Origin: Deltaproteobacteria bacterium
GTDB lineage: Bacteria > Desulfobacterota > Dissulfuribacteria > Dissulfuribacterales > QOAL01
Assembly (NCBI GenBank): GCA_027067775.1
Contig: JAMOVK010000019.1
Coordinates: 1 to 61,082 of the forward strand
DNA: 61,082 bases
Direction: 5' to 3'
Shown: positions 1,005 to 7,678 of the stretch, piece after piece
How the letters are laid out: each line of letters opens with the position of its first letter
How positions within the stretch are numbered: position 1 is the first letter of the stretch
Translations under genes and position numbers: made by a program
Notes under the pieces: model-generated
Databases searched by the model: none
Told to the model about the DNA's origin: nothing
The model's input: the letters and a program-made list of their open reading frames with translations, nothing else

Positions 1005-2522
1005 TTATCTTTTCATGTTTAGCAACTCGTTTAACATATCGTCTGTGGTAGTGATGACCCGTGAGTTTGCCTGAAATGCCCTTTGTGTAGTAATGAGCTT
1101 TACAAATTCAGTCCCCATATCAACTGTTGACTGTTCAAGTGCGTTTGCTGCAATGGAGCCAAGGCCATTGCTCCGAGGCGGGCCAGTTATGGCAGTGCCT
1201 GAGGCAGTGGTTTCTCTCCACAGGTTACCCCCTTCTTTTGAAAGGTCGGAAGGACTGTAGAACCTGGCCAGGGCGAGCTGACCAAGGGCTATTATCCTGC
1301 CGTTGGAGTATGAGCCAGAGATGATTCCTTCTGCATCTACGCTGAGGCTTTCTAGAAAACCGGCTCCAAAACCGTTCTGGTCGTAGAAGAGGGTGCTGGA
1401 ACGGTTTGCATACTGGGTGGTGGTTATGGTTTCTGGAGACCAGGACACCACCTGATTGCTGCCTGAATCTATCTGGGCATGTGCGCCAAAGCTGAATTCT
1501 ATCCTCTGGGCAGTGGTATCCAGGCCGGTTGTTGGATCGGTATTGCCAGAAGGTGGCTGGAAGAATGCAATAATTTGGGGATAGTTGTGATCACCAAATG
1601 CCTGATTTGTGTTTGTGTTGTTCTCAAGAGGACCTTCCTCGTTGGTGTCGTTGAAGCGATAGAGATCGAAAACCCTTTCTATTTGGCCATCTGGGGTGAA
1701 CTGGATCTTGCCCCTCATCAGTCTGCCAGCATTGGCGGTACCAGCGTTTCCAGACTTGTCTTCCATTGGGTTCATTGCCACCAGAAATTCCCATGTACGC
1801 TCATCTCCCTGGGTATTTGGATCGTCTATCTCCTTGTCAAAGTAGACTGTCAGTTCATGGGTGTTGCCCAGGCTGTCATACACCTTAAAGGTAGACTTGT
1901 ACTCGTAGTTGATGTTCTGTTTCAGACCACCATTTGGGTCCCCTGTGCTTCCATCCCATGTGTCTGCCAAGGTGTTGTTGCTGTCTACCGGTTTGGCCCC
2001 GTCGTCCAGGTTCACAGCTATTGTGGCCAGGCTGCTGGCCACAGGTGGCGAGGTATTTTGGATCTCTATGTCCTTGATGGAGCCAACTATTTCAAAGGTT
2101 CCATCTGGCTGCTCTTCCATGTCCCAGCCCTGGACTCTCAGTCCGGCCGGATTTACCAGATATCCGTTTTTGTCTACATGAAACTGGCCAGCTCTTGTGT
2201 AGTAGATGCTGTTTTCAATCTTTGGATTGGAGACCATGAAAAAGCCGTTACCTGCAATTGCCAGATCTGTGGGCGAGGCAGTGCTTTCAAAGGAGCCCTG
2301 GATGAAAAGGGGTGCCACGTCTGACATGGCAGATCCTCTACCTACCTGAGAGCCGCCCCTTGCCGTATTGATTGACTGGGCCATAATGTCTTGAAACGTG
2401 CTTCTTGCAGCCTTGAAGCCCGTGGTGTTTACATTGGAGATGTTGTCTCCGATAACCTGCATGGCGTTACCCATGTTTACCAGGCCACTTACTCCTGAAT
2501 ATAAAGAACTAGTTAAAGCCAT
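1005..2522 (-). CDS. flgE: Flagellar hook protein FlgE
   Basis: N-terminal SLYSGVSGL...IGDNISNVNTTGFK, YTRAGQF, and C-terminal LEQSTVDMGTEFVKLITTQRAFQANSRVITTTDDML. Confidence 0.97.
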   Translation of the reverse strand: MALTSSLYSGVSGLVNMGNAMQVIGDNISNVNTTGFKAARSTFQDIMAQSINTARGGSQVGRGSAMSDVAPLFIQGSFESTASPTDLAIAGNGFFMVSNPKIENSIYYTRAGQFHVDKNGYLVNPAGLRVQGWDMEEQPDGTFEIVGSIKDIEIQNTSPPVASSLATIAVNLDDGAKPVDSNNTLADTWDGSTGDPNGGLKQNINYEYKSTFKVYDSLGNTHELTVYFDKEIDDPNTQGDERTWEFLVAMNPMEDKSGNAGTANAGRLMRGKIQFTPDGQIERVFDLYRFNDTNEEGPLENNTNTNQAFGDHNYPQIIAFFQPPSGNTDPTTGLDTTAQRIEFSFGAHAQIDSGSNQVVSWSPETITTTQYANRSSTLFYDQNGFGAGFLESLSVDAEGIISGSYSNGRIIALGQLALARFYSPSDLSKEGGNLWRETTASGTAITGPPRSNGLGSIAANALEQSTVDMGTEFVKLITTQRAFQANSRVITTTDDMLNELLNMKR

Positions 2523-2549
2523 TTTTTTTATACCTCCTGTATCTTAAAC

Positions 2550-3251
2550 TTAGGATTCAACCTTTGTTATATCTTTAAAATCTATGGCCTTGTCACCCTT
2601 AATGGTGATCTTAGGAAAGCCATCTTTGCCGTTTTCAATGCCAGAGACCATGCCCATTGTTTTTGTGGTAAGTTCAACTTCCTGGCCAGAGGCGTCTTCT
2701 GCAGAGATAGAAACCGTATATGCGCCTTCATGGGCCTTGTCTCCGTTGGTATCGGTGCCATCCCATTCCAGGCTCACTTCCTGACCAGGCTCCAGAGGGC
2801 CGATATTTAACTCTTTTACCAGATTCCCTGCTGGAGAATAGATAGACGCCTTTACGTCAACTGCCTGAACATCCTGGTCGTTAAAGATGCTAAAGGGTTC
2901 CACACCTTTGTCTGAGACAAAGATCTTGCTGCCTTCGTATTCCACCCTGTGGCCTAGAAGGCTGATGGCGGTGACAGATGCCGCCATGTTTTGGGCATTG
3001 GTCATACTTTCAAGCGCTGCATTATTTTTATACATAAGATCCACCATGTTGAACTGGGCAACTTGTGAGGCCATCTCAGCGCTTTCCATAGGGTTCATTG
3101 GATCTTGATACTGAAGCTGGGTTACAAAGAGCTTCATAAAGTCATCCCTTCCAAGGGTGGCATGTTCCTCTTTGGTCTTGTATTCGATATCTTCAAGCCC
3201 TGTATTGCTTGTTTGGGCTGAGCTGTTGGGTATGCTACCTAATGCTGTCAC
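2550..3251 (-). CDS. flgD: Flagellar hook capping protein FlgD
   Basis: LGRDDFMKLFVTQLQYQDPMNPM motif and WDGTDTNG Ig-like motif; lies directly upstream of flgE. Confidence 0.95.
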   Translation of the reverse strand: MTALGSIPNSSAQTSNTGLEDIEYKTKEEHATLGRDDFMKLFVTQLQYQDPMNPMESAEMASQVAQFNMVDLMYKNNAALESMTNAQNMAASVTAISLLGHRVEYEGSKIFVSDKGVEPFSIFNDQDVQAVDVKASIYSPAGNLVKELNIGPLEPGQEVSLEWDGTDTNGDKAHEGAYTVSISAEDASGQEVELTTKTMGMVSGIENGKDGFPKITIKGDKAIDFKDITKVES

Positions 3252-3263
3252 GGCTAAATTCTC

Positions 3264-4982
3264 CTATGCAATAATGTGTACCCCATCAGGGCGAATGCCG
3301 GTTGTTCTGGAAGTTGTTACTTCCTCAACCCCGTCGTTTCTGTCTGTAAGTAATGAGGTTGGGTAGCCAAATGGAGTGAGCTTTTCCTGTTGGGCACCTG
3401 TCCACTGACTGAAACCACCACTTACATCCACGTTGACCTGTGACATGGAAAAACCGTTCTGAGAAAGACTGTCCCTTAACTGTTGCATGTTCGCCTCAAG
3501 TATGTGGCGAGTCTCCGGGTGGTCTGCCACAAAACTTGCCTGAACATGATTGTTGTGGGACACGGTGATGTTGACCTTAACACTTCCAAGCTCTGGTGGA
3601 TTGAGATGGAGCACGGCCCTGTTTTTGTTCATCTTCAGTGCCTGGCTGATTCCCTCTCTTACCTGTGTGGTGACCAGATCATCCAGGTTGTTGTCGGCAA
3701 CGTTGGCAGACGTATCTATATCTATATCGTTCCTATAGATGGCTGTGATACTGCTAGGAGTTATACGTCTTTGATCAAATTGTTGAGTGCTTTGTCCTTC
3801 ATCACCGTTCTGGTTATTTCCTGGTTCTTGATTTTGGTTGTTATTGAAATCAATTGTCAGTGCTTCATCGCCTTTTGCATTAATGGTAGAGGTTTGGTTG
3901 TTTTGTGCCTCAGATACCGGAGACGAAGTTGATAAGCGGCCCTTTAGTAAGTCAGGTGAAACATGAAGGGTCTGCATTTCAAGATTGCCATGATCTGTTT
4001 TGATGGAGGCCTTGGCCATTTGGATGCTTTCGTCCTGGCTGTCTTGAGAGGTATCTATAAAAGACAGCCTTTGGTCATTGGATATACGCTGGCCAAATCT
4101 TCCGGAACCTGAATATCTGAGATCAGAGATGTTTAGTCCTCTGCCTTTGCTGTAGGTGACAGTCATAAGGTGCAGGTCAAGATCGTTTTCAGAAGATTGT
4201 CTCTGTTCGGCGATCCTGGAGCCAGGTTCGCCTGTCTGCCTGCCACTCGGTTGTGTGGCAGCTGTCTGTGAAGCTCTATCAGAGTCTGCTTTTGCACCAT
4301 CCGGGTTACCTGGAAATGGGATATTTGATTTCTGGTTTATATCTCCTTGCCAGGTCGTATTGGGTTCATTTTCAACAGTCTCGGATAGGCCTGTTTCTGC
4401 CAGATTAATGCCTGGAGCTACCACTTTGGACATGGATGCAGATTGGATTTGAGGGTTTTCTGAGACCATGTAGGCAGAAGTTGCAGCCTCGTTGGACGGG
4501 GCCTCTAACAGGCCTGATTCCAATGGAACAGTGGGGGATTGGGAAGAAACGGAGCTGGAAGAGTCTCCTTGAAAGGCCATGGCAAGTTCCTGAAACATGG
4601 TAAGTATCATCTGCAACTGTGATATGAATCCATTTGACCATCTATCTGTTCCAGGGTTTGGGGCGTTTTCTTTGGCATCTGAAGATCCTGCCTCTTCTGT
4701 ACCATATTGGCCCTCCTTGGAAGTTAGTGATAGAGGTTGAGAGCCGTTTTCATTGTCTCCGTTGCCCCAAAGAAGGTTCAAAAAAGCAAAGAGATCCTTA
4801 AACGGGTTAGCAGCTTGGTCATTGTTATTAAGACTTTCTCCATGCTGTGCAGAAGCCATTTCAGTGGCTCCGAGTAGATTGTCAAAGTCCGATTTTCCCG
4901 AGGCGGTTCCAGAGGTTGTTATGTTTTCACCTGTTACTGGCGGACTGCCTGGAAATAGGTTTGTAATTGCAGCAGCTGTCAT
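3264..4982 (-). CDS. fliK: Flagellar hook-length control protein FliK
   Basis: Low-complexity S/Q/N-rich N-terminus and C-terminal LHLNPPELGSVKV...LEANMQQLRDSLSQNG domain. Start moved to ATG 4982 (GGGAGA RBS) from the track's 5066. Confidence 0.9.
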   Translation of the reverse strand: MTAAAITNLFPGSPPVTGENITTSGTASGKSDFDNLLGATEMASAQHGESLNNNDQAANPFKDLFAFLNLLWGNGDNENGSQPLSLTSKEGQYGTEEAGSSDAKENAPNPGTDRWSNGFISQLQMILTMFQELAMAFQGDSSSSVSSQSPTVPLESGLLEAPSNEAATSAYMVSENPQIQSASMSKVVAPGINLAETGLSETVENEPNTTWQGDINQKSNIPFPGNPDGAKADSDRASQTAATQPSGRQTGEPGSRIAEQRQSSENDLDLHLMTVTYSKGRGLNISDLRYSGSGRFGQRISNDQRLSFIDTSQDSQDESIQMAKASIKTDHGNLEMQTLHVSPDLLKGRLSTSSPVSEAQNNQTSTINAKGDEALTIDFNNNQNQEPGNNQNGDEGQSTQQFDQRRITPSSITAIYRNDIDIDTSANVADNNLDDLVTTQVREGISQALKMNKNRAVLHLNPPELGSVKVNITVSHNNHVQASFVADHPETRHILEANMQQLRDSLSQNGFSMSQVNVDVSGGFSQWTGAQQEKLTPFGYPTSLLTDRNDGVEEVTTSRTTGIRPDGVHIIA

Positions 4983-5231
4983 GCCTTTTATTCTCCCGTG
5001 TCTTTTTGGTTTAAAACGCAGTGCATTTTGTGATCTGCAAATAGTGTTCCTGGGGAAAAAGAGCAATCCAGACTGCTCAAAGGGTGCTGTAGAGGCGTTT
5101 TTTCAACCGTGGTATGAAAACCGCATATAATAAATGGAAATTGTTTCCCACAGGTGGGCAACAAGTGCCATTTTACTATCCTGATATAATGTTTGTTTTG
5201 TCTTTTCAGACAGTTATTGTGAACAAAGGAA

Positions 5232-5423
5232 TGCAGATTGGCAGGAGGTGACTTTCACAGGCAGGAAAGCAGGGTCAAGAGCTTCGAGGGCTTGGCTTTG
5301 CAGAAATCCAAATTCCCTCGCTCCGCTCGGCTTGAGTGGATTTCTTTTGCTCCGCCTTCGCCAAGAATCTCTAGGCCCTGTTCCCAACACCTGATGAAAA
5401 GCCACCATCCTGGCCAATCTGCA
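5232..5423. repeat. Long imperfect palindrome, element A (~190 nt hairpin)
   Basis: tgcagattgg (5232-41) pairs with ccaatctgca (5414-23); nested arms cagga/tcctg, ggtg/cacc, tttca/tgaaa, ggaa/ttcc, cagggtc/ggccctg; inner stem gaaatcca/tggatttc. Confidence 0.85.
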
Positions 5424-5807
5424 ACCGATCTAGACCCTTTCTCCTGTAACATACAGCTGTTGTACCAATATTTGGTGTTATGCAGCTAGCACTAGAAGAT
5501 CAATGTGGGACATCCAGTGCAGGCTTTAGAAATAACGGCTTTAATAACAGTACAATTTTAAGGCGTCACCTTCACCCTCGATTGCATAAAATGGAGGCAT
5601 TCTGGAAAGTCTAAAAAGTGGGACGGTTTTTTTGAGATTATTACCACCTCAGACCTCCATTCGTCTTGTCACAAAAAACATTCTCTTAGCAACAAAACGC
5701 TCTTACTAAGACATTCTTGGTAGAGTCCAAATATCATGAAATAAAGACATGGAACTTGGGTGATTCCCAATTTTTAAAGGTGGTGTTCTGAACAGCAGGA
5801 TTCATCA

Positions 5808-5998
5808 GATGGATAGGGCAAGGATAGGGGTTTGATTAGACATTTGGGAACAGGGCCTAGAGATTCTTGGTGAAGCGAAGCGGCTGAAACCTCCATTTAG
5901 CGAGCGGCTTTGGAGCGTTTCAGCGAAGCAAACCATAGAAGCACTTGGCCCTGCTTTCCAGTCTAGTCAAAGTCCTTCCTTGCCCGTCCATATCCATC
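5808..5998. repeat. Long imperfect palindrome, element B (inverted relative of element A)
   Basis: gggcaagga/tccttgccc, tttgattagac/gtctagtcaaa, cagggcc/ggccctg, inner gctgaaac/gtttcagc. Shares ttgggaacagggcctagagattcttggYgaa (31 nt, 1 mismatch) with the reverse complement of A. Confidence 0.85.
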
Positions 5999-6167
5999 CG
6001 TTTACCATGGCATGTATAAACTGGAAAAAAGATCCCGCTCATACAGGCAGATTGATAGGTCGAGTATTTCGTTACTGCAGTAATAAGTTGACAAGGGGTT
6101 GGGCTTTTATTTTTTTATCCTAGGATTTTCTGTCTGATTTTCAAAAAGGCCCAAGACAAGTGTAATT

Positions 6168-6740
6168 ATGAAAAGTATCATAGAGTTAGCTCTAAAAGGG
6201 GTTACTAAGGCCCTGGATGAAACGGTAAGTGAACAGTGTCATGTTATTCAGGCTATTGCCTCATCTATTGGTTCCTGCTTAAAGAATAGAGGTAAGGTGC
6301 TTCTTTGTGGAAACGGTGGAAGTGCTGCAGACTGTCAGCACATTGCAGCGGAGTTCGTAAACAGGTTTAAGATGGAAAGATCTCCCCTTCCTGCAGTCGC
6401 CCTGACAACTGATACATCCATCCTGACAGCCATTGCCAACGACTATTCTTTTTCCCAGGTGTTTGCCAAACAGGTTCAGGCCCTTGGCAAAATGGGTGAT
6501 GTACTTTTGGCAATATCAACAAGCGGATCATCTTCGAATATCCTGGAGGCCCTTGAGATTGCAAGACAACTTAACATTGTAACAGTAGGTTTTACCGGGG
6601 CAGCAGATAGTAAGATGGAAGGATTATGTGACATGATCTTGAAGGTAGCCTCTAGAGATACCCCACGCATTCAGGAAGTCCACATATTTTGCGCACATGT
6701 CATATGTGACATGGTTGAAAGGAGTCTTTTTGGCAGATGA
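6168..6740 (+). CDS. gmhA: Phosphoheptose isomerase (sedoheptulose-7-phosphate isomerase)
   Basis: CGNGGSAADCQHIAAEFVNRF, LTTDTSILTAIANDY, ISTSGSS, RIQEVH motifs. Confidence 0.96.
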   Translation: MKSIIELALKGVTKALDETVSEQCHVIQAIASSIGSCLKNRGKVLLCGNGGSAADCQHIAAEFVNRFKMERSPLPAVALTTDTSILTAIANDYSFSQVFAKQVQALGKMGDVLLAISTSGSSSNILEALEIARQLNIVTVGFTGAADSKMEGLCDMILKVASRDTPRIQEVHIFCAHVICDMVERSLFGR

Positions 6741-7678
6741 GCTATCCAAAGCCCTTTTCCTTTGAAAAACTAAATACATACAGCCTTTATGAAAGACCAA
6801 GCAAGGTGGGCATTAAAGACCTTGGCAGGCCTGTTCAGGCTGGTATGGGCATGAAGGACTTTCTTGCCAGTCTTCCCAGCCAGCTTGCTGCCAGGGATCT
6901 TTTGGAAATTGCAAAAAGATGGGCCAAGGCGGTCAGGCAAGGCAGAAAGGTCATATTTGCCATGGGAGCCCATGTTATAAAGGTAGGGCTTACGCCCCTT
7001 TTGATAGATTTAATGGAAAGGGGCCTAGTCAGCGCATTTGCCCTGAATGGTGCTGGCATAATTCACGACTCTGAGCTTGCCATGGCAGGCAAGACGTCGG
7101 AAGATGTGGCATCTGTGTTAGGCTCCGGTGAGTTTGGAGCGGCTAGGGAGACCGGGCAGTTTCTGAATCAGGCAATTGGTGTAGCCTGCCGAGAAGGTAT
7201 CGGCCTTGGCCATGCAGTAGGAAAGAAGCTTCTTGAAGCCTCCTTTCCATATAACAACTGTAGCCTTGTTGCCCAGGCAGCCTTAAGGCAGGTCCCGGTA
7301 ACGGTTCATGTGGCGATAGGCACTGATATTATCCATATTCATCCTGATGCCAATGGAGCGGAGATCGGAGAAGCCACCTACAGAGACTTTAAGATCTTTT
7401 GTTCCCTTGTTGCTGACTTGCAAGATGGTGTATACTTCAACATTGGTTCGGCTGTTCTTCTTCCTGAAGTGTTCCTCAAGGCCCTCACGGCTGTAAGGAA
7501 CCTGGGTCATGCTGTGGACAGGCTTACTACGGTGAATCTTGATTTTATCAGGCAGTATCGGCCCTTGACCAACGTTGTTAACAGACCTACCTTGGAAGGC
7601 GGAAAGGGGTACAACCTGACAGGCCATCATGAGTTGATGTTACCCCTTCTTGCAGCAGCCGTAATGGAAGAACTTTAG
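6737..7678 (+). CDS. Conserved hypothetical protein with deoxyhypusine-synthase-like features
   Basis: MGAHVIK, NGAGIIHDSELA, GSAVLLPEVFLKA and GHHELMLPLL resemble DHS-like NAD-binding proteins; overlaps the gmhA stop (ATGA). Confidence 0.6.
   Translation: MSYPKPFSFEKLNTYSLYERPSKVGIKDLGRPVQAGMGMKDFLASLPSQLAARDLLEIAKRWAKAVRQGRKVIFAMGAHVIKVGLTPLLIDLMERGLVSAFALNGAGIIHDSELAMAGKTSEDVASVLGSGEFGAARETGQFLNQAIGVACREGIGLGHAVGKKLLEASFPYNNCSLVAQAALRQVPVTVHVAIGTDIIHIHPDANGAEIGEATYRDFKIFCSLVADLQDGVYFNIGSAVLLPEVFLKALTAVRNLGHAVDRLTTVNLDFIRQYRPLTNVVNRPTLEGGKGYNLTGHHELMLPLLAAAVMEEL

Follow-up and report, generated by a model that had tools for sequence, protein, structure and literature searches.

REP doublets, pairs of repetitive extragenic palindromic (REP) sequences known as REPINs, are moved by REP-associated tyrosine transposases (RAYTs) (PMC3116915, PMC5581495). 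Other described systems that bear comparison are the miniature inverted-repeat transposable elements (MITEs) of the Correia/NEMIS and ERIC/IRU kinds, which fold into long hairpins, mobile insertion cassettes (MICs), the mosaics of Y- and Z-type REPs, alternating in orientation and joined by set linkers, that make up the bacterial interspersed mosaic elements (BIMEs) of enterobacteria, transposons of the IS200/IS605 family together with palindrome-associated transposable elements (PATEs), and the attC sites of integrons. Here we describe a family of ~190-nt hairpins, two of which, A and B, enclose non-coding DNA between fliK and a gmhA-like gene in a 61,082-nt stretch (the window) of the genome of a hydrothermal-vent deltaproteobacterium. 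The unit that they bound is a repeat and an insertion; it is modular and carries cargo, its stems keep their pairing by compensation and its ends are strand-specific. In its behaviour the family comes nearest to a REPIN or a mobile insertion cassette, and we lean towards regarding the copy in the window (~5220–6024) as a lineage-specific, non-autonomous, hairpin-ended mobile element that would be moved as single-stranded DNA by a Y1/HUH transposase acting in trans.

Hairpin A, the left end of the unit, extends over 5226–5427 and is read on the minus strand; it comprises outer, middle and inner stems and is delimited by its folds, its copies in the genome, its strand asymmetry and its motifs. 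Hairpin B, the right end, occupies 5808–5998 on the plus strand, as judged from folds, alignment and motifs. A first-pass annotation of the sequence had placed one long hairpin at each of 5232–5423 and 5808–5998, facing opposite ways across ~385 bp of non-coding DNA. Hairpins do lie there, folding best on the minus (A) and the plus (B) strand, and the spacer (5424–5807) measures 384 nt, but the conserved ends reach slightly further out, A beginning at 5226. The fold of A has an energy of −96.9 kcal/mol on the minus strand (z −5.6) against −91.0 on the plus strand, that of B −103.5 kcal/mol on the plus strand (z −10.7) against −93.9 on the minus strand; none of 200 shuffled sequences folded as well as A or B.

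The two hairpins are inverted copies of one another (72–78% identity) and give the unit terminal inverted repeats. The core arms that they were said to share are where the annotation put them (5356–5387 and 5844–5875; 32 nt, 97% complementary), and a second pair of arms (5259–5294 and 5929–5964) is 81% complementary. A 27-nt core occurs twice in the window against an expectation of 0.00. Direct reading also confirms the apical CGAGCGG in both hairpins and the stems peculiar to each, which are present and pair: tgcagattgg/ccaatctgca and gaaatcca/tggatttc in A, gggcaagga/tccttgccc and gctgaaac/gtttcagc in B. The conserved loop AGATTCTTGG is found at 5361–5370 in A (read on the minus strand) and at 5861–5870 in B (plus strand); mini-hairpin motifs are found in A at 5348–5354 and 5319–5325 (GCGGAGC, read on the minus strand) and in B at 5875–5881 and 5922–5928 (GCGAAGC, plus strand). 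Alignment to other copies shows that hairpin B of the window lacks 10 nt at its apex.

Further copies are plentiful. The genome that contains the window (G000; 2.4 Mb in 165 contigs) holds ~22 copies of the hairpin together with internally deleted remnants, and its most abundant 14-mers (16 occurrences) all come from this family. The copies are of A type or B type, which have the middle stem and the loops in common and differ in their outer and inner stems; a chimeric hairpin on contig C149 joins the outer stem of A to the inner stem of B. The arrangement A(−)–interior–B(+) is seen in five composites (C19, C58, C72, C149 and C154) and, degraded, in three more (C98, C35 and C48). C160 carries a truncated composite consisting of B and a little of the interior, C25, C87, C81 and C118 carry solo hairpins, and further copies lie at contig ends (C44, C45, C142, C100 and C98). 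Across the eight composites of this ~0.8-kb non-coding unit the order and relative orientation of A and B are constant. In most of them the interior is one and the same ~385-nt non-coding sequence; C58 and C48 have another in its place, and in C149 the interior includes an extra ~650 nt with decayed frames for a BrnT toxin and a CopG antitoxin (a BrnT/BrnA pair). These toxin and antitoxin frames, at C149:64204–64603 inside the composite, are split and truncated. The unit has no transposase and carries variable passenger DNA, with at least three interior types in G000. Each of the 15 copies that were located falls between genes, whether these are convergent, tandem or divergent. Other long repeats of this genome are paralogous housekeeping genes, with no multi-copy transposase among them, and no short REP unit was found to recur alone.

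Evidence of insertion comes from relatives of the same genus. In five genomes fliK and the gmhA-like gene are adjacent, with a spacer of ~220–290 nt in which ...GTGCCAYTTT is followed, after 3 nt, by the promoter-like TTGACAAGG...TTTTATTTTTTTA. In the window the same two motifs respectively end at 5174 and begin at 6087. Because the five congeners lack these ~910 nt, the window copy is an insertion; the relatives are only 70–75% identical, so that the ~910-nt gap can be mapped and the exact empty site cannot. The insertion separates the promoters of fliK and the gmhA-like gene, which point away from each other, and each promoter is kept on the side next to its gene. It is also old, since a population in run X2 that is ~9% diverged carries both junctions of the same insertion. 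The annotation's proposals of a REPIN- or MITE-like non-autonomous element and of the ends of a cassette both find support here: the unit is repeated, multi-copy and absent from the same site in relatives, and A and B are its two ends on either side of a variable interior. No target duplication is visible at the window insertion, and there are no direct repeats at the junctions of the five composites or of the solo copies, where fuzzy ends could hide short duplications. Run X1 yielded no clean joints representing an empty site, and a second metagenome, considered as a source of filled and empty pairs, proved to contain the same population as the related genome G023 (100% identical flanks).

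What the copies conserve is structure. In a set of 30 hairpins from three genomes, with the structure taken from their own minimum-energy folds, the invariant columns are loops: AGATTCTT(G/A)G, GCG(A/G)AGC, AGCGAG and CAGCG(A/G)AG..CC.TAGAAG. Cells at predicted pairs are able to pair in 79.4% of cases, against 35–53% when the partners are slid by 1–3 columns; 42 of 73 pairs are changed on both sides, and RNAalifold reports compensatory changes in 10 of its 20 predicted pairs. Double-change cells number 187, compared with 78.9 ± 7.5 in shuffles (0 of 500 reach 187), which bears out the earlier suggestion that structure is kept over sequence. These figures are to be read with the knowledge that the copies are related, that the MAFFT alignment is not structure-aware and is poor in the outer stem, and that the structure was drawn from the very sequences compared. 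Folding is, moreover, not the only reason for which a palindromic DNA element could keep its symmetry. Each end of the unit is a ~190-nt hairpin of three modules whose stems are free to change while they go on pairing.

The hairpins are not equivalent on their two strands. In 30 of 31 copies the better fold belongs to the outward strand (the one read from the interior) under RNA and DNA energy parameters alike, the mean difference between strands being ~13 kcal/mol with the former and 6.1 kcal/mol with the latter. Mismatches in paired columns are G·T in 171 cases and A·C in 110, and purine–purine mismatches (203) exceed pyrimidine–pyrimidine ones (113). GCGNAGC/GCGNNAGC motifs occur 83 times on the outward strand as against four times on the other, where three of the four come from one copy that is probably mis-oriented; in the genome at large they occur at 0.146 per kb per strand. 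Their positions within the hairpin are fixed and number three, one at the apex and one on each arm (5′ and 3′). GCGAAGC is on both arms, where a perfect palindrome would put GCTTCGC on one of them. The purine-rich loops as a whole (AGATTCTTGG, GCGNAGC on both arms and at the apex, and CCNTAGAAG) are conserved on the outward strand only. Heptamers and octamers of this kind are extraordinarily stable “mini-hairpin DNA” motifs with melting temperatures of 70–76 °C, known from the single-strand initiation sites of G4-type phages and RSF1010 (PMC13037366). The strand asymmetry is accounted for by a single-stranded form, DNA or RNA, and not by a double-stranded protein-binding site.

This bears directly on the possibility that the family is an ordinary double-stranded MITE or foldback element, whose ~190-nt terminal inverted repeats are bound by a DDE transposase and whose compensatory changes arise from paired binding sites or from gene conversion between arms. 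A and B are indeed inverted copies with 72–78% identity, and the A/B chimeras (C149 and L051) and a flipped hairpin (L136, below) look like products of recombination between arms. A double-stranded site, however, would not hold GCGAAGC on both arms of one strand (83 against 4), nor would it explain why one strand folds better in 30 of 31 copies; no target-site duplication is present at any of the five composites, and G000 has no multi-copy transposase gene. We regard this explanation as improbable.

A single-stranded form may equally be RNA. The hairpins might act in outward transcripts that fold, as a REP-like 3′ stabiliser, a terminator, an insulator or, as the annotation had also proposed, a stand-alone structured non-coding RNA, with mobility secondary. 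In keeping with this, stems covary while loops are invariant, unpaired positions are A-rich and C-poor, mismatches compatible with G·U are in excess on one strand, and copies are often at the 3′ ends of genes; in the transposase-bearing unit described below, the downstream hairpin would fall in the 3′ untranslated region of the mRNA in its well-folding orientation. The apical octamers, GCG(U/C)(G/A)AGC, read as GNRA tetraloops in RNA, and the arm motifs could face one another as a GAA/AAG purine internal loop; because these readings fit too, the motifs alone do not decide between DNA and RNA. On the other side, a search of Rfam with 4500–6800 gave only chance-level matches even at E ≤ 10 (E 0.25–7), none of them on the hairpins, there is no standout promoter signal, a terminator-like hairpin stands just before B, and no RNA run contains the region. 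Patchy occurrence, multiple copies and the carriage of cargo together make the pattern of a mobile element, and an RNA function would leave the spread of copies unexplained. We consider a primary role in RNA unlikely.

The reading that we prefer, movement as single-stranded DNA, can be set out as follows. The element has the form hairpin(−)/variable non-coding or cargo interior/hairpin(+), and the present locus holds one such element as an old insertion. A RAYT-like Y1/HUH transposase that binds hairpins would recognise the ends as folded single strands of DNA and move them in trans, as is supposed for REPINs. A candidate enzyme is a 294-aa Y1 protein of a co-occurring congener, which is bracketed by two hairpins of the same family.

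This congener (G001) comes from the same sample as G000 (Ga0256835; run X1). On three of its contigs a 294-aa open reading frame (ORF) lies between or beside hairpins of a third subtype, Y, which combine the loops of the family with other stems; on L087 the ORF occupies 342–1223 of the minus strand. HUH (HFH) and YxxxNP motifs can be read by eye from the translation. The protein scores 42 bits on Pfam Y1_Tnp (cut-off 23) and 67.9 bits on NCBIfam REP_Tyr_transpos, below the 80-bit cut-off; its relatives are named RayT at JGI, and a sequence search of the PDB with it gave no significant match. Contigs of Ga0256835 contain at least seven junctions between the Y1 gene and a hairpin, as well as solo Y hairpins and one flipped hairpin. 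The gene-to-hairpin junctions are identical among copies whose outer flanks differ. Contig depths in run X1, summed at ≥ 95% identity and therefore rough, are 26–32 for the single-copy flanks of contigs with Y1 gene and hairpin, 31–35 for single-copy DNA of G001 and 21–22 for that of G000, compared with about 180–1600 for the Y1 gene and 2000–5000 for Y hairpins; depth drops to that of single-copy DNA at the outer foot of each hairpin. Such values indicate that the hairpin–Y1–hairpin unit is present in tens of copies in G001. A joint on L087 (259 to 1318) skips the Y1 gene and represents a deletion derivative. The unit has its loops in common with the A and B hairpins, and not its stems.

Several details of the Y-type copies deserve mention. 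In L136 (1043–1237) the hairpin downstream of the Y1 gene is inverted relative to L140 and L087, as if the arms of the palindrome had recombined. Solo Y hairpins on L173, L110 and L120 have ~80 nt in common beyond the hairpin foot on the 5′ side, and most Y copies have a small extra palindrome, CGCACAGGCGTTGTGAG, at the inner foot.

The first-pass annotation had stated that no transposase is in the window. For enzymes of the Y1 type this holds; a candidate transposase has come to light only in the sister genome. G000 itself has a locus (C16:435–817) in which the inverted end repeats of the Y1 element (435–448 and 511–528) stand with nothing between them, and in which a Y-type hairpin (575–765) and a third end-like motif (800–817) are also found. 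This locus is the gutted remnant of a hairpin–Y1 unit. All five carriers of the hairpin have a Y1 gene, fragments of one or an end-repeat remnant (that of G000 on C16); seven of 22 non-carriers have a Y1 gene too. Since G000 has lost its Y1 gene, its own copies are probably relics or moved by another enzyme. Two RAYT-like genes of G000, on C62 and C118, were considered as the cognate enzyme and rejected: the repeat flanks neither of them, and the carriers G023 and G015 have no orthologs; within the genus, orthologs occur only in G001 and G007. Degenerate copies of the Y1 end repeat GGGACAGGCAAAT were suspected in the extra DNA on either side of the window copy, but the outer flanks of all 21 copies proved no richer in it than the genomic background, and the idea that the interior is a decayed Y1 gene was dropped when tblastn of the Y1 protein against all composites returned only noise.

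A number of observations weigh against transposition in trans by this enzyme. Hairpins adjoin only Y1 copies of ≥ 93% identity, all in one sample. Orthologs of the Y1 gene (55–79% identity) occur in 11 other genomes, where they are non-syntenic and bounded by a 16–29-nt inverted repeat, GGGGACAGGCAAATWAT; no hairpin is near any of them, including that of G023 with its 23 or more hairpins, and close homologs fetched from other samples are likewise without hairpins. The Y1 gene is, then, a low-copy insertion sequence (IS) in its own right, whose association with hairpins is confined to one lineage, and given its hairpin-free orthologs it may be no more than another cargo, or an IS that came to insert within a hairpin unit. 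G000 has no ortholog of it, and the two RAYT-like paralogs and the IS200 gene of that genome are not flanked by the repeat. Copies in G000 are 83–98% alike, so that most of them are not recent. Neither a target duplication, nor a target motif, nor an exact empty site has been found. One end of the unit has its conserved loops on one strand and the other end on the opposite strand, which does not fit IS200/IS605 transposition, where both ends act on the same strand; and the purine-rich loops and GNRA-like apical tetraloops are equally suited to RNA.

The Y1 gene may accordingly be the mobilising enzyme, a passenger, or an IS that has landed in the hairpin unit. Were the link reversed, hairpins would be preferred landing sites for the Y1 IS, as REPs are for some families of IS, or the Y1 gene passive cargo, and another enzyme, of the host or of a mobile element, would move the units. 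That the Y1 IS has inverted ends of its own (16–29 nt) and moves without hairpins in other genomes agrees with such a reversal, as do the motifs resembling Y1 IS ends on both sides of several Y-type hairpins and the absence of hairpins near the Y1 gene of the hairpin-rich G023. Yet the boundaries of the amplified unit in run X1 coincide with the outer feet of its hairpins, not with the inverted repeats of the IS, and gene-to-hairpin junctions are constant among copies with differing outer flanks. We judge the reversed link to be unlikely, and treat the Y1 protein as no more than a candidate whose link to the hairpins is moderate at best.

The Y1 protein belongs to a widespread group. For the ~299-aa Y1/HUH “RayT” family (L089, L090 and L094–L105) a search at E ≤ 1e-40 gives more than 3851 homologs, most of them on contigs of 1–2 kb. 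Its members have terminal inverted repeats of 16–29 nt, which are unusual for Y1 transposons and sometimes take the form of short inverted doublets.

The hairpin family is narrowly distributed. BLAST detects the hairpin in 7 of 41 related genomes. A loop-anchored pattern finds it in 5 of the 27 genomes of the taxonomic family, in two of six genera, with 12 matches in G000, 6 in G001, 1 in G003, 23 in G023 and 1 in G015. Among 185,579 species genomes the exact B/Y-type pattern is present only in G023, G001 and one mis-binned contig of the same sample, and real matches in JGI metagenomes come from two vent samples only. Plasmid and phage collections gave no match. None of the outcomes that the annotation had named as refuting its reading has come about: further copies exist, the stems covary, and the hairpins match no described REP or IS end and no Rfam family. 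G023 has the same A–interior–B build with a ~330-nt interior of its own, other outer stems and its own chimeras; one of its copies carries 1.65 kb of cargo. The loop-anchored pattern also matches ~35 human-gut contigs (for example L123, L129 and L133), always over a 98-nt span and otherwise unlike the family, which probably reflects some unrelated conserved sequence; a single match in a viral contig has the same 98-nt span and was set aside as a false positive. In G023, ~220 nt beside one hairpin (the left flank in L159) is itself a dispersed repeat with 14 copies of 87–94% identity, and is a second repeat family or another interior type.

Set beside the described systems, the family comes close to several. 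As in REPIN–RAYT systems, an extragenic hairpin repeat is the commonest short repeat of its genome and acts as one strand, and in one lineage a RAYT-like Y1/HUH gene, the candidate enzyme in trans, is flanked by inverted copies. The hairpins, however, are ~190 nt long with three swappable stem modules, whereas REPs are 20–40 nt and form doublets of ~100 nt; here they enclose cargo as well, and the unit so enclosed has many copies of its own. In the sister genome the Y1 gene between hairpins is present in tens of copies rather than one, and G000 is without a flanked RAYT gene. MITEs and MICs resemble the family in being small, transposase-less and intergenic, with inverted ends and deletion derivatives, and MICs also in holding passenger genes between their ends; but here a full long hairpin forms at each end, target duplications are not seen, what is conserved is a set of strand-specific loops instead of double-stranded end sequences, and no parent IS with identical ends is known. 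BIMEs likewise pair two palindrome types in inverted orientation across a linker and are modular and mosaic. The present family is about five times larger in scale, with a linker of 330–385 nt or cargo and a far lower copy number, and binding of IHF or gyrase is not evidenced for it. With IS200/IS605 elements and PATEs it would have in common Y1/HUH chemistry, to which it is assigned by inference, along with structured ends, the lack of target duplication and internally deleted derivatives. The hairpins of IS200/IS605 are small, subterminal and on the same strand, while those described here are several times longer and on opposite strands. The family does not qualify as a REPIN–RAYT system, on account of its unit size and the want of a flanked single-copy RAYT, as an IS200/IS605 element, on account of its opposite strands, or as a classical MITE, no target duplication having been seen; nor do the hairpins qualify as attC sites.

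The last comparison touches on another explanation, in which the hairpins are the folded sites of a site-specific recombinase, attC-like or Xer-like, and A–interior–B units are exchangeable cassettes. Variable cargo between constant structured ends, including a toxin–antitoxin pair, structure conserved over sequence, and single-strand specificity like that of attC bottom strands are what would be expected. Sites for attC recombination measure 57–141 nt, however, and the ~190-nt hairpins are longer; they point in opposite directions instead of forming an array of one orientation, copies are dispersed singly in unrelated intergenic places, and direct reading of the window reveals no RYYYAAC/GTTRRRY core sites. 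No recombinase gene was seen beside any copy. This explanation is very improbable.

A bolder version of the single-stranded DNA reading would make the family a distinct class of HUH-driven transposons, with ~190-nt single-stranded DNA hairpin ends, each a covarying scaffold for three GCGNAGC-type mini-hairpin loops on its outward strand, that are free to enclose any cargo, including their own RAYT-like transposase. The hairpin–Y1–hairpin unit would then be an “autonomous REPIN”, a living intermediate between IS200/IS605 and domesticated REPIN–RAYT systems. The mechanism would differ from that of both, because the well-folding hairpin of each strand is at its 3′ end. We put this forward tentatively and think it doubtful.

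For annotation, the consequence is that the 1.2 kb separating fliK from the gmhA-like gene represent a non-coding insertion rather than an overlooked gene or an RNA that regulates the flagellar operon; many contig breaks in genomes from these vents are explained by the hairpin repeat as well. The family offers a compact natural example of stems being swapped wholesale while the hairpin structure persists together with a few strand-specific loops, and one lineage still ties such hairpins to an amplifying RAYT-like transposase. The movement of REPs and REPINs being unsettled, large, information-rich hairpins with an apparently active autonomous form make a good substrate for biochemistry. If the link to the enzyme fails, what remains is an ordinary, lineage-restricted selfish repeat.

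The finer architecture of the locus is as follows. At the left edge of the extra DNA stands the genus-conserved host motif AATGGAAATTGTTTCCCACAGGTGGGCAACAAGTGCCATTTT (5133–5174), defined by alignment with five same-genus loci; in a low-depth contig of run X1 homology stops exactly after 5174. There follow unique DNA that is not in relatives and not repeated in G000 (5175–5219), and the left extension TGAACA (5220–5225), common to three to four copies (C19, C58 and C72, with C98 similar). Beyond hairpin A, the main-type non-coding interior (5428–5807) is the same in C72, C149, C154, C35 and C98; it contains no convincing ORF, and includes a 31-nt palindromic indel (~5451–5481) and, just before B, a small conserved hairpin and T-run (5756–5770) that resembles a terminator. 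A right extension of ~25 nt (5999–6024), recognised by alignment, is common only to the copy on C160, and is followed by DNA not found in relatives (6025–6086). The right edge is the promoter-like host sequence GTTGACAAGG...TTTTATTTTTTTA (6087–6120, plus strand) before the gmhA-like gene. The repeat itself therefore covers ~5220–6024, and ~45 nt to its left and ~60 nt to its right are unique; these segments (5175–5219 and 6025–6086) may be what is left of an earlier insertion, or else an outer portion of the element that varies between copies.

Two host features flank the insertion. The promoter-like TTGACAAGG-N-TTTTATTTTTTTA at 6087–6120 is conserved in the genus and was left intact by the insertion beside the gmhA-like gene. 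Upstream of fliK, the 42-nt motif AATGGAAATTGTTTCCCACAGGTGGGCAACAAGTGCCATTTT contains an inverted repeat, TTTCCCAC..GTGGGCAA; as it is conserved in all five same-genus genomes compared, it is likely to be a regulatory site for the flagellar hook-length operon.

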